Shown here: positions 13,713 through 32,635 of the stretch, piece after piece
How the letters are laid out: the number at the start of each line of letters is the position of its first letter
Numbering within the stretch: the stretch's first letter is position 1
Virus record (IMG/VR): IMGVR_UViG_3300014204_000165
Location: 1 to 64,000 of that record
DNA: 64,000 nucleotides
Strand: one strand, 5' to 3'
Source: a virus
Lineage: Duplodnaviria > Caudoviricetes
Notes under the pieces: generated by a model
What the model was told of the DNA's origin: nothing
What the model saw: only the letters and a program-made list of their open reading frames with translations
Database searches by the model: none
Position numbers and translations under genes: made by a program

Positions 13713-13922
13713 ATGATTAAGGTTTGGCCGTGGCTATCAGCACCACGAAAATATAAGAAACTTAGTAAGAGTGGATATGAAGACTGGCTAGCTTATGTCC
13801 CTGCAGAATACTATGAAGAAGTCTATCTGTCCAGATGGCTACCTGCTCTGGATAGTTGCGAGGATCCACAAGAATTTCGATTGCCAAATGGTGATTATGT
13901 CTTTATTGGAGGGCATGCTTAG
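13713..13922 (+). CDS. small phage hypothetical protein
   Basis: MIKVWPWLSAP...EDWLAYVP...VFIGGHA; the upstream extension in the ORF track is probably spurious. Confidence 0.6.
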   Translation: MIKVWPWLSAPRKYKKLSKSGYEDWLAYVPAEYYEEVYLSRWLPALDSCEDPQEFRLPNGDYVFIGGHA

Positions 13923-14027
13923 ACCAAAATGTTTATATACTAGTTCGTCTTTGTAGTAAGTGCACCCAACCATGAGGAAGAAGGGCTAAAAATCTTGGTT
14001 CTTTTTCTTCATAATAGTTATTAGGAG

Positions 14028-22929: not shown

Positions 22930-24810
22930 TTAAGAAAATACTCTCCTTGGGAATTCATATTCGCGACGGGTTTTACTCCAAGAGTCCGTGGGTACAAAAT
23001 AGCCGACTATACGTGTGACATGTGTTAGTATTTTCTTTCCGCAAAGCGGACAGGTTTCTGAGGTACCACACACGGTAACGTGACCATCTTCGCATTGCCC
23101 AAAAGAATAGTTGATGCTAAGGTGGCTAATTTTCTTTTCCACTGAATATTTTATAAGATGTTTCATAATATTAGAATCTGTTATTTTATCCTTTAGATTA
23201 AGATGTAGAATACCTCCACCGCTTATTAGATCTTGAAATTGCCCTGTTAATTCTATTCTTTCTGGCAGAGATGCATCTAAAATCAAAGGAATGTATTGAT
23301 TGGAGTATAGTTCAAAGGGTATTTTATCATTACCATAAAGCACTTTATCTTTTTGAACAAACTTGGATGCTACACTTTCTCCCGGAATTTCTTCCGTATT
23401 CATTGGATAACCTAACTGCCTACTCGTTTCTTTTGCAAAGTTTTCAATAAACATTAACATTTCTTTTGTAAAAGTGATACCTTCTACAGATTTAATATCC
23501 AAGTTCATAAATATATTTGTTTCAAATACACCAATGATACCAAATGTACTAAAGTATCGTTTAATGTTAAGCCAATTAAGTGGAGAAAAGAACTTCAGGA
23601 ATCCTGCATTTATTCTTTTCTGAATTATATCCTCGCGGTGTACTTGCAACAAATCACGAGCATTTTCTAATTGTCTTTGAAGTTCTATAAAGAATTTTTC
23701 TTTATTTCCATTCGATTTTAGTGCAATTCTCGGTAAATTTAGTGTAACGACGCGAACACTACCAATTGATCCAATTGATCCATTTCCAAATGAATCAATA
23801 CGTGGCATATCATCTAAATTATTTAATAATCGACAACAACTACTAATTTTATTACCACTATTTATATATAAATTGAAACATCCTGAATTGCAATTAACGT
23901 TTGATACAAAATTAAGAAAATCATCATCTATTATTTTTCTATCTTTGTCAATACACAAATTAAGCGTCGCAACTGGAAAGCGATAAGGTAGACCACTTTC
24001 GGGGTCTCCTCGCGAAAACCAAGTACAGAAGACCTTCTGGAGATACATTATGTATTCAAAGTCTGGTTTTGATCCATCTGGAAATATATAAGATGAAAAC
24101 AATTTCTCTAAATTTGGTCTATCAAATATTGATATGTTAGAAAAGGGTGATTGTGATGCGATGCGGAATTTATTATTCACAATATGGACAAGTCGCTGAT
24201 AGTCGTCGCGAATATCATTTTCACTTCGATTCTCTTTCTTGGCATAATACGAATAATTTACGAAAAGATCACCAATTGCTACCGCACCCGAAAATTCTTG
24301 GCTTGCATCCATAATTAGTTCCGTTACCATCCCGATGAAAGAAGCCGCTCGCTTTGGAGGTAGACTTTTTAACTGTCCATACGGTCGTCCACTATTCATC
24401 AATTCTGTTGTGCTCATGCTAGTACAATATGGAACTTGAATACCAAATGAGGAACTATCATGAAAATAAATATTGCCTTTTATAATTGCTGATAATAGTG
24501 TATTTGCGTGTTCCAATCCAAATCTACGTTCTGCATACCGATGAAGTAGATACATGCCCTCTAATTTTTGTACCCCTTTAACAATTTCTGCCCCGTACGC
24601 ATTCGGATTTTTACTCTCACCAGAGTTTGCATTTGCATCTATTGTTACATCTACAAAGTTTTCTGTAAAGTATGAATGCGACATTTGCCCCACATCCAAA
24701 CATCGACGCGATATTCCCTCCAAATCGAGCAATCTTCTCCCATTTTCTGTTTGATTAAAAGAATTGTACCAATTGTCAAAATTTTCACTGAATGTTGTCT
24801 CTAGTCTCAT
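22930..24810 (-). CDS. nrdD: anaerobic (class III) ribonucleoside-triphosphate reductase, no ATP cone
   Basis: IYFHD, SCCRL finger loop, TEEIPGES, C-terminal Zn site and glycyl-radical loop TRIVGYF; start at MRLETTF (ATG 24810, SD AGAGGA). Confidence 0.95.
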   Translation of the reverse strand: MRLETTFSENFDNWYNSFNQTENGRRLLDLEGISRRCLDVGQMSHSYFTENFVDVTIDANANSGESKNPNAYGAEIVKGVQKLEGMYLLHRYAERRFGLEHANTLLSAIIKGNIYFHDSSSFGIQVPYCTSMSTTELMNSGRPYGQLKSLPPKRAASFIGMVTELIMDASQEFSGAVAIGDLFVNYSYYAKKENRSENDIRDDYQRLVHIVNNKFRIASQSPFSNISIFDRPNLEKLFSSYIFPDGSKPDFEYIMYLQKVFCTWFSRGDPESGLPYRFPVATLNLCIDKDRKIIDDDFLNFVSNVNCNSGCFNLYINSGNKISSCCRLLNNLDDMPRIDSFGNGSIGSIGSVRVVTLNLPRIALKSNGNKEKFFIELQRQLENARDLLQVHREDIIQKRINAGFLKFFSPLNWLNIKRYFSTFGIIGVFETNIFMNLDIKSVEGITFTKEMLMFIENFAKETSRQLGYPMNTEEIPGESVASKFVQKDKVLYGNDKIPFELYSNQYIPLILDASLPERIELTGQFQDLISGGGILHLNLKDKITDSNIMKHLIKYSVEKKISHLSINYSFGQCEDGHVTVCGTSETCPLCGKKILTHVTRIVGYFVPTDSWSKTRREYEFPRRVFS

Positions 24811-25798
24811 GTTTATTCCTCTGTTTAAGTATATTATATTCTTCCTTTGTAAAATAAGATCGACCATTATATATCTCATCAATTATCCTATGGATAATAG
24901 TTTCCCACTCTTCTCGATTATAATTAGTTTTATTATGACAGGTCATACATAACGCCGCAAAATAGACTGGTAATCCATCGCAACAAGCGGATTTATTATA
25001 GTGAACATGATGACATGATAATTGTCTACCATTTTCTTCAGTTGTTTTATTACAAATAAGACATTCATAATTGAAGAAAGCTCTTATTCTCCGTCTCAAA
25101 TCTGGATTCCATTTTGGACAATACGGTTCAAAAGAAATACCACCTTTCCAAGCAGGAGATTTGTCTCCAAAATTTTTTGATGCCATTTCAGACATCATAT
25201 CTCGTTTTAGACAACCACAACTCCTAGTCGAACCGTCTATAAGAGCAGATCCAATTACACTTGTTTCTTGACCACACTCACAAATACATTTCCATTTGAC
25301 ATTACCACTTTTAGCAGTATTTTCATCTTTTTCCAAAACAAGTAATCTTGAGAATTTTATACCAATTAAATTTTTGGTATTACATTCTCTTGCTCTTTCC
25401 GTAGCATAACATCCACAACTTTTGGTTGATCCGCGTATTAACGAACTTCCAGTGACATTAACTATATTACCACAAGAACATTTACATTTCCAAAGAATAC
25501 TTCCCCATTTATTTATTCCGTATCTTTCTAATACTGTAAGTCGTCCGAACGTATTACCTAATAAATTTTTACTAGTAGCCTTGCTAGTCATTTCTTTTTG
25601 TAGACATCCACAACTTTGTTTATGACCACTAGTTAAGTACCATCCAACTGTAACTATTTCTTTACCGCAGTCGCATAAACATACCCAAGAAGATTGTTCA
25701 TTATTGTTTTCTGAATCACGAATTGCTGTTAGTCTACCAAATTTCTTTCCGACTAGATTTAATCTATTATGAGCAATATTTCCTTTCTTAAAAACCAT
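24785..25798 (-). CDS. free-standing HNH homing endonuclease between nrdG and nrdD
   Basis: Three GRLT...WxCxCxCG...SCGC repeats; C-terminal HNH closely similar to 10023-10856. Confidence 0.88.
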   Translation of the reverse strand: MVFKKGNIAHNRLNLVGKKFGRLTAIRDSENNNEQSSWVCLCDCGKEIVTVGWYLTSGHKQSCGCLQKEMTSKATSKNLLGNTFGRLTVLERYGINKWGSILWKCKCSCGNIVNVTGSSLIRGSTKSCGCYATERARECNTKNLIGIKFSRLLVLEKDENTAKSGNVKWKCICECGQETSVIGSALIDGSTRSCGCLKRDMMSEMASKNFGDKSPAWKGGISFEPYCPKWNPDLRRRIRAFFNYECLICNKTTEENGRQLSCHHVHYNKSACCDGLPVYFAALCMTCHNKTNYNREEWETIIHRIIDEIYNGRSYFTKEEYNILKQRNKHETRDNIQ

Positions 25799-31436: not shown

Positions 31437-32463
31437 TTAATATCGAAGAATAGCAGCTATACCACCAAACACCTTACGAAGTTGTTCGCCTTCTTCGAAT
31501 TCTGTTGATATTATGTTAACTTTGGTACTAAATTTAGATGTCAATTCTTCTAGTGCTTTTTCATGGGATGAAAGTAACAACGTTTTAACTCTTCCGGTTA
31601 GAAGGGCATCTTCCACGGATTTTCTTCCATATAATATTGCACCGTCTTTGCTAAGCAGTGTAAAGAAACTTCTCATTATGTTACGTTGCTTCACTAGTTC
31701 GGTTTCTTTTAAGAGTTCCTCGGCATTTTGTATTGTTTCCTTTATACCTTGGAATCCAGTATAACCAACATCCACAACACCGGTAATCTTTTTTCGAAGT
31801 TCGTGATGCAAATATTCACTATCATTGAAATCATTTTTCGTGAGTCCTGGGCCACTTATTATAATTCCGGAAAGGTCTTTTAAATCAAGTAATTCTTTTG
31901 AGATATTATCCGCACTTGATTTAAACCAATCAATGATTGCAAGTTGTCGGTTTTTCTCAAATCGCTTCGCAGACTGTCCGCCTCTACTCATTTTCTGAGG
32001 AACATTACTTTCGTCTTCAAAAAGGACATTAATAGAAGTTCCTTGTAAGGTAACTAAGGTAACTTCATGCAGGTCCAGGCAAATAATCGCATGTTTTGGA
32101 CCTTTATCTTGCATGCTTTCAAGAGGGTCCAAAAAGAATTCTGATCCACATCGATAGATAATACCTTTAAGTGGCTTAGGAACTGCTATAGCCTCACTTA
32201 TCCAACCAGTTGATGTTTCACCGACAAAGATAGCATAATGCCCATCAGATAAGGTTTTTAACTTTTCCAGACAACTCTTGATTGCAGATATAACTGCTTG
32301 TCGAGTCACACGAGATTTGATATTCTCAGCTTTTCCTGCTTCGTCGCGCAAAAGACCGGCAGCATCTGGTACTTTTCCTTCAGGAACATATAACGTGATT
32401 AGTTCTGTTCCTTTGCCTCTTAGTTCACACAGTGTGCTAAAGACAGTAGTTGTTAATGGTCAT
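31437..32463 (-). CDS. prf1: archaeal-type class I peptide chain release factor aRF1, predicted to need a +1 frameshift at codon 8-9
   Basis: GKGTELITLYVP, ENIKS, YRCGSEF, RGGQSAKRF and the C-terminal FGGIAAILRY are all conserved. The homologous frame extends 87 nt 5' of the first canonical start (TTG 32351). SD-backed ATG 32463 is in a different frame and stops at CTT-TAG (32442-32437). Confidence 0.9.
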
Positions 32464-32482
32464 TTAATTCACCTATTTTATA

Positions 32483-32538
32483 TGGAGCATAGTGGAATCG
32501 AACCACCCCGAATAACCTTTCGTAAGCCATTTTGCTCC
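32483..32538 (-). ncRNA. tRNA-like element lacking a D-arm (56 nt)
   Basis: GGAGCA...TGCTCC-A acceptor stem; T-arm GGTGG-TTCGATT-CCACT; a single intervening hairpin AATGGC..C-GAAA-G..GTTATT. Confidence 0.5.
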
Positions 32539-32569
32539 TAATCAAGAAAAGAAAGGTGTTGATTTGCAC

Positions 32570-32635
32570 CTCTCCTTCCCTGAGTTGTGTGGGCACCTAC
32601 TACAAAGACGGACTAGTATAAATACCTTTTGGTCC
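32570..32635 (-). promoter_or_regulatory. promoter + leader driving the tRNA-like element and aRF1; near-duplicate of 13921-13985
   Basis: GACCAAAAGGTATTTATACTAGTCCGTCTTTGTAGTAGGTGC versus GACCAAAATGTTTATATACTAGTTCGTCTTTGTAGTAAGTGC. Confidence 0.7.

Follow-up and report, generated by a model that had tools for sequence, protein, structure and literature searches.

A virus-encoded archaeal release factor, aRF1, is probably expressed by a programmed +1 ribosomal frameshift with a negative-feedback logic like that of bacterial prfB. The gene lies on the minus strand of the window, by which we mean the whole stretch of 64,000 nucleotides analysed here, taken from a 76.6-kb virus contig in IMG/VR that CheckV rates as 54% complete. 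It opens with a short ATG frame that ends in a slippery codon followed directly by a stop codon, and the body of the release factor follows in the +1 frame. This anatomy is conserved at the nucleotide level over a clade of viral genes, and the +1 body is under purifying selection. On these comparative grounds, programmed +1 ribosomal frameshifting at the site is a well-supported interpretation.

Anatomy of the probable frameshift site

The features of the locus are collected in Table 1. From the start codon to the shift site, the minus strand reads ATG ACC ATT AAC AAC TAC TGT CTT TAG C, and frame 0 translates as MTINNYCL*HTV*, so that plain amber readthrough would end at the TGA four codons further on. 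The +1 frame begins STLCELRGKGTELITLYVP at the site and stays open as far as its TAA, while on the upstream side it is closed by a TGA overlapping the ATG. The earliest ATG, GTG or TTG in this frame is the TTG at 32351, 29 codons past the shift site, which falls 3′ of the conserved G.GTELI..Y.P strand; a product initiated there would be without the strand. Gene callers start the window aRF1 at precisely this TTG and report 304 amino acids, against 341 amino acids for the predicted post-shift product. An earlier sequence-only reading of the window had described the Shine–Dalgarno (SD) motif, the ATG, CTT-TAG-C and the +1 body, together with the closed upstream frame, the missing start codons before 32351 and the fate of readthrough, and our re-reading agrees with it to the base. 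SD-like 4-mers occur within 20 nt upstream of 52 of the 93 ORF starts in the window (56%, compared with 16% of random 20-nt windows), mostly at a spacing of 5–10 nt, and the SD ahead of ATG 32463 is thus typical of the virus.

Table 1. Coordinates of the features of the aRF1 locus in the window
Feature	Position	Strand	Description
Shine–Dalgarno-like AGGTGA	32474-32469	minus	ATTAA (5 nt) between SD and frame-0 ATG 32463-32461
Frame-0 short ORF MTINNYCL*	32437..32463	minus	ATG + 7 codons + TAG
Shift heptamer CTT-TAG-C	32436..32442	minus	CTT 32442-32440, TAG 32439-32437, C 32436
aRF1 body, +1 frame	31437..32438	minus	333 codons, AGC 32438-32436 to TAA 31439-31437
Frame-0 TGA	32425..32427	minus	four codons past TAG; shuts the readthrough route

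As the interpretation depends on a single base, its presence was followed in other assemblies. The contig from the source run is identical to the window and is not independent evidence. Two contigs of another study (X3 record 7 and X4 record 12) cover 32424-32533, and neither their short frame nor their shift site shows an indel; the X3 and X4 contigs are 7% and 3% divergent, respectively, and the former carries 11 substitutions relative to the window. Both data sets are labelled RNA-Seq and may be DNA, and are therefore uninformative on expression. A groundwater data set (X2) holds parts of the stretch, with 32308-32511 covered by none of its contigs. Altogether, independent assemblies from at least three studies agree on the base count, and ten further divergent loci from other samples confirm, by comparison and far beyond chance, that the extra base is real. 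The assembly error that the sequence-only reading had asked to be checked is accordingly not what these contigs and loci point to.

The gene product and its viral context

The +1 product matches all of eRF1_1 (PF03463, 29.3 bits, E 9e-7), eRF1_2 (PF03464, 104.4 bits, E 8e-30) and eRF1_3 (PF03465, 61.6 bits, E 1e-16) above the curated Pfam cut-offs. Its domain 1 contains the stop-recognition motifs ENIKS (NIKS) and YRCGSEF (YxCxxxF), and domain 2 holds the catalytic GGQ as RGGQS, with G160, G161 and Q162 invariant in the same alignment (A1). The C-terminal AAILRY corresponds to the ILRY motif, and the product lacks the insert that most cellular aRF1 have in domain 3. Judged by these domains and motifs, the gene encodes a viral class-I release factor, aRF1, with predicted release activity; its original designation as an archaeal release factor carried by a virus is upheld by the same features and by the surrounding viral genes.

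These include a baseplate wedge protein encoded directly upstream of the aRF1 locus and, elsewhere in the window, a tail fibre, a tail sheath and a D5-type primase-helicase. The window also encodes the anaerobic ribonucleotide reductase NrdD (22930-24882, minus strand, Pfam E 6e-85), which fits an anaerobic host. The sequence is found in landfill, groundwater and wastewater metagenomes. Under the standard code, coding density is 90% and ORFs end in TAA (47), TGA (28) and TAG (18), so that TAG is a genuine stop here; alternative codes with TAG, TGA or TAA as sense were rejected, as density was 0.89–0.91 compared with 0.90 and all three stops are used. ARAGORN found no tRNA genes in the whole window, and Rfam at gathering thresholds gave no match in it.

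Conservation of the layout among viral relatives

A protein search placed the window product in a group of short aRF1 proteins of about 330–340 amino acids that are 54–85% identical to it, below which a gap precedes cellular aRF1 at about 40%. The nearest cellular relatives at that level, of Methanocellales, Thermoplasmata and Archaeoglobi types, are uninterrupted. The tree recovers the viral aRF1 clade as monophyletic (100/100 support), with long branches between it and cellular aRF1. Scanning genome contigs for clade members returned none (best match 36% identical), a single-protein scan of viral contigs gave no match and an alignment-based scan of viral contigs recovered L082 alone. DNA was compared for 13 distinct clade loci including the window, with P0002, P0004, P0011, P0013 and P0015 outside the count. 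The neighbourhood of one member, the frameshift-type aRF1 of L002 (931-4261), comprises rubredoxin, PP2C phosphatase, radical-SAM and DUF362 genes, so the clade is not always set within recognisable virion modules.

Eleven of the 13 loci, which come from unrelated metagenomes, have a short ATG frame followed by YTT, TAG or TGA and Y, with the aRF1 body in +1 (Table 2). The stop is TAG in seven and TGA in four, the P-site codon CTT in four and TTT in seven, and the base after the stop C in eight and T in three. The frame-0 ORF varies from 4 to 21 sense codons and in sequence by lineage; what is kept across lineages is the slippery codon and the stop. The short ORF, a CTT-stop and the +1 offset had been predicted to recur in relatives, and the layout does so in these 11 loci. 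The exact CTT-TAG of that prediction does not hold throughout, since TAG alternates with TGA and CTT with TTT.

Table 2. Shift sites of the 11 frameshift-type loci
Locus	Site sequence
window	TGT CTT TAG C
L001	TGT TTT TAG C
L002	CGT TTT TAG C
L008	TGT TTT TAG C
L003	TGT TTT TAG T
L004	AGT TTT TAG C
L095	CGT TTT TGA T
L005 = L006 = L082	TGT CTT TGA C
L046	TGT TTT TGA T
L090 = L091	TAT CTT TGA C
L094	CGC CTT TAG C

An SD stands ahead of the frame-0 ATG in six loci (besides the window, GGTGA-5-ATG in L001 and L008, GAGGTG-6-ATG in L005, GAGGAG-7-ATG in L046 and GGAG-5-ATG in L090), while L003, L004 and L095 have a TATA-like box 25–30 nt 5′ of this ATG in place of an SD. Six loci have an ATGA quadruplet at the start; a shift at the start codon itself was ruled out, L008 and L046 having ATGG. 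In six of the 11 loci, the body frame has no ATG, GTG or TTG upstream of the conserved strand, and the other five have a possible in-frame start (GTG in L003, ATG in L090, and TTG in L094, L095 and L005). In two members of the clade, L009 and L092 (= L093), the gene has no interruption. Uninterrupted relatives had been named in advance as evidence against the interpretation; these two exist, while the other 11 loci keep the site. Together with the five loci that have a possible start, they indicate that the shift is not a requirement throughout the clade. Almost all sub-lineages of the tree include frameshift-type loci, a distribution that fits an ancestral site with subsequent losses on a poorly resolved backbone.

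The script used to parse these loci, applied to 41 other aRF1/eRF1 loci, found YTT before the nearest stop in the corresponding frame in none of them, and ordinary in-frame starts in 35. A similar site was considered in cellular-type hot-spring loci (L013-L023) and rejected: conserved TTG starts are found there about 28 codons ahead of the motif, and YTT-stop is absent from the appropriate frame.

Two clade members show further irregularities. In L005 (IMGVR_UViG_3300042261_001929, 2480-2510), a second frame break lies between aRF1 domains 1 and 2 (..TTG CAC G GAA ATG GAC..), with no stop, slippery codon or recoding signal there; it is identical in three assemblies (L005, L006 and L082), and the downstream piece begins at ATG. 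The gene may be decaying, or it may encode two separate proteins, one with domain 1 and the other with domains 2 and 3. L093 contains, at 600-713, a 37-aa ORF with the aRF1 N-terminal strand only (..GRATEIISLYVP..LLRDEYGK), about 800 nt upstream of its intact uninterrupted aRF1, a remnant of a second copy.

Selection on the site and its displacement in one lineage

Between the window and its nearest relatives, and in the closest pairs, the aRF1 body has a dN/dS of 0.07–0.09 (about 0.08), with synonymous sites at or near saturation (pS 0.63–0.86 between loci). Across the site, the +1 frame encodes Phe and then Ser or Asp, and a frame-0 stop requires Phe to be TTT and Ser to be AGY. The Phe codon is TTT in 11 of 11 loci and the Ser codon AGY in seven of seven, for pooled usages in these genes of 0.47 and 0.41, respectively; the probability of this pattern is roughly 4e-7 if lineages are treated as independent and about 1e-4 with seven deep lineages. 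That these codons are invariant despite saturation indicates that selection maintains, at positions silent in the +1 protein, the nucleotides that preserve the slippery codon and the stop, and conservation of the site exceeds what coding constraint explains.

The strongest single argument for the fusion protein as the product comes, in our reading of the alignment, from L094, where the site is displaced. The stop sits eight codons before the GTELI motif in ten loci, and immediately before GRGTELI in L094. The frame-0 peptide of L094 has 21 residues and ends in ..SSFDLSALHRL; in alignment it matches the N-terminal helix (TIFDELRSL in P0014, for example), which other members encode downstream of, or in frame with, their site. 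Only a fusion of frame 0 to +1 restores the homologous N-terminus in L094, and the product of the gene would therefore be the fusion protein.

Proposed mechanism and stimulatory elements

In the mechanism we propose, ribosomes would start at the SD-led ATG 32463, read eight codons and then pause, tRNA-Leu occupying the P site on CUU while UAG stands in the A site. Fast recognition of the stop would release an octapeptide and give no aRF1, while slow recognition would allow the P-site tRNA to slip from CUU (UUU in relatives) onto the overlapping UUU; AGC would then enter the A site, and the 341-aa aRF1 would be made. The slip itself and the tRNA involved we infer. As aRF1 reads the stop, the shift would compete with termination, hence the negative feedback that is to be expected by analogy with prfB: the output of aRF1 should drop as total (host plus viral) termination activity rises. 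The sequence-only reading had proposed a UAG-specific sensor, a claim that the relatives do not sustain, since four lineages have TGA in place of TAG; the site would instead sense termination in general. We regard as evenly balanced the broader proposal that this stop-sensing +1 shift is the ancestral, clade-wide mode of aRF1 expression in archaeal tailed viruses, topping up termination when host aRF1 is limiting.

In the window, no SD-like motif is present in the 20 nt ahead of CTT, as had already been noticed with respect to a prfB-like internal SD. RNAalifold found no consensus structure (-0.1 kcal/mol) for ten loci between -45 and +104 around the site, and single-sequence downstream folds were inconsistent between loci. 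With no stimulator in the window and no conserved structure, efficiency would rest on the heptamer, and the window site, if the mechanism is correct, would need just YUU-UAG/UGA-Y. In L004 (2300-2316) and L095 (978-993) only, GAGGGA lies 4 nt upstream of TTT (ATG AGG GAT NGT TTT); it resembles the stimulatory SD of prfB and is lineage-specific, being absent from the lineage of the window.

Alternative explanations

The sequence evidence for the proposed shift would look the same if the shift were real and exerted no feedback on the viral factor, serving instead to fix expression at a low level or to read out the state of the host, for instance when host aRF1 is depleted or inhibited in infection. 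None of this evidence bears on feedback, and host aRF1 also reads the stop in the infected cell, so that the sensor cannot separate the two factors. Autoregulation is nevertheless the rule in all well-studied cases of a stop-dependent shift in a release-factor gene (prfB), and any functional aRF1 from the gene would necessarily act on the site, which makes a shift without feedback unlikely. It is more doubtful still that the +1 frame is entered by another route, whether by non-canonical initiation, by shifting at another point of the short ORF or by reinitiation once translation has terminated at TAG, the YTT-stop being a by-product of a Val-Phe-Ser/Asp peptide. Such a route would account for the +1 residues upstream of the site (T-T/I-V-F-S/D), which are conserved and resemble the N-termini of relatives, and for several substitutions among the window, L001 and L002 that are synonymous in +1; CTG, moreover, stands two or three codons past the site in most loci, and L003 has GTG directly after ATGA. 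Once L008 is added, however, the substitutions are mixed between frames, and a constraint on GT-YTT-T can also explain Val-Phe, while protein constraint leaves the invariant TTT and AGY unexplained. In the window, the +1 frame is without a near-cognate start between the TGA and the site, the SD motifs point to the frame-0 ATG, and in L094 the homologous coding sequence before the displaced site is in frame 0.

That the gene is a captured aRF1 killed by a 1-nt insertion near its start is very improbable. The second, unsignalled break in L005, L006 and L082 suggests that at least one lineage may be decaying, and the 37-aa remnant in L093 could be read in the same way; against this stand the low dN/dS with saturated synonymous sites, catalytic motifs that are all intact and the persistence of the same break in 11 lineages throughout the clade. 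An error of assembly or sequencing, or transcriptional slippage on a T run, has almost no likelihood left. A T5 run is seen at the site in most relatives (GTTTTTAG), yet the run is no longer than T3 in the window, L005, L090 and L094, and the base count is the same in the independent assemblies and in the ten other loci. A T5 run is also far shorter than the runs known to give efficient transcriptional slippage. Programmed frameshifting with feedback thus remains the reading that we prefer.

The leader region upstream of aRF1

The window contains a pair of promoter-like units, about 45 nt long and almost identical, at 13921-13985 (plus strand) and 32570-32635 (minus strand), each with a TATA-like box (..TTATATACTAG.. 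and ..TTTATACTAG..) followed by CGTCTTTGTAGTA.GTGC. The aRF1 ATG follows one of them at a distance of about 160 nt. Between this unit and the aRF1 SD is a tRNA-like element of 57 nt (32483-32539, minus strand), with a 6-bp acceptor stem, one central hairpin, a canonical T-arm (GGTTCGATTCC) and no D-arm; it scores 21.8 bits with the Rfam tRNA-Sec model, below the 47-bit gathering score, and its MFE is -18.1 kcal/mol (z = -1.6). From the position of the promoter-like unit, the aRF1 mRNA probably has a leader containing the tRNA-like element. An identical stretch of 61 nt is present in unrelated surroundings in a wastewater contig (X3 record 8), and the element may thus be a mobile or host-derived unit.

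Comparison with known recoding systems

Autoregulation of a release factor by +1 frameshifting is a textbook case, regarded as bacterial. Among viruses, the eRF1-type factor of Mimivirus (R726) and Megavirus (mg280) is likewise a virus-encoded a/eRF1 that needs recoding at internal stops, a recoding that was proposed to be autoregulatory; according to that work, homologues in archaea and eukaryotes lack such mechanisms (Jeudy et al. 2012, PMC3521657). The genes described here differ in that a single +1 shift lies beside the start and that they belong to tailed archaeal viruses. Programmed frameshifting as such is found in archaeal translation systems and archaeal tailed viruses: a 2021 review of archaeal recoding (PMC8211752) covers -1 programmed frameshifting in Saccharolobus fucA and shifts in the tail-assembly chaperones of haloarchaeal tailed viruses, including a +1 case in HSTV-2. 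Unlike the present site, none of those cases concerns a release factor or a stop-codon-dependent shift, and no aRF1 case is given there; a survey of archaeal tailed viruses likewise mentions no viral aRF1. A literature search on aRF1 and frameshifting, archaeal viruses and autoregulation returned only the giant-virus paper and general reviews and no archaeal or archaeal-virus case, in agreement with the initial statement that no archaeal example had been described. For archaeal ribosomes, this would be the first stop-dependent +1 recoding site with good support, seven nucleotides in length, and release-factor self-control by +1 frameshifting would, if the mechanism is correct, extend to archaeal viruses besides bacteria and giant viruses. 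The existence of the site raises two further questions: why an archaeal virus should have a termination factor of its own at all, and what it senses by this means. In practical terms, recorded gene-caller products of 304, 317, 318 and 271 amino acids, compared with the predicted 341, are truncated at an internal TTG or ATG, and annotation pipelines therefore need a rule for the site.

The closest parallel is prfB, the gene of RF2, with its CUU-UGA-C in Escherichia coli. In both, an early in-frame stop is read by the gene's own product and the body follows in +1; the P-site CUU is followed by U, so that the tRNA can re-pair on UUU, and the stop is followed by C, a weak context for termination. 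L005 and L090 have exactly CTT-TGA-C. The differences are equally clear, as the viral sites use TAG or TGA, have TTT more commonly than CTT in the P site and place the shift 4–21 sense codons after the start, compared with the 26th codon in E. coli; the window is without the internal SD 3 nt upstream, and, the gene being viral, the host factor acts on the site too. Above all, aRF1 is omnipotent and its fold is unrelated to that of RF2, so that the viral genes would show the same regulatory solution arising on a non-homologous release factor.
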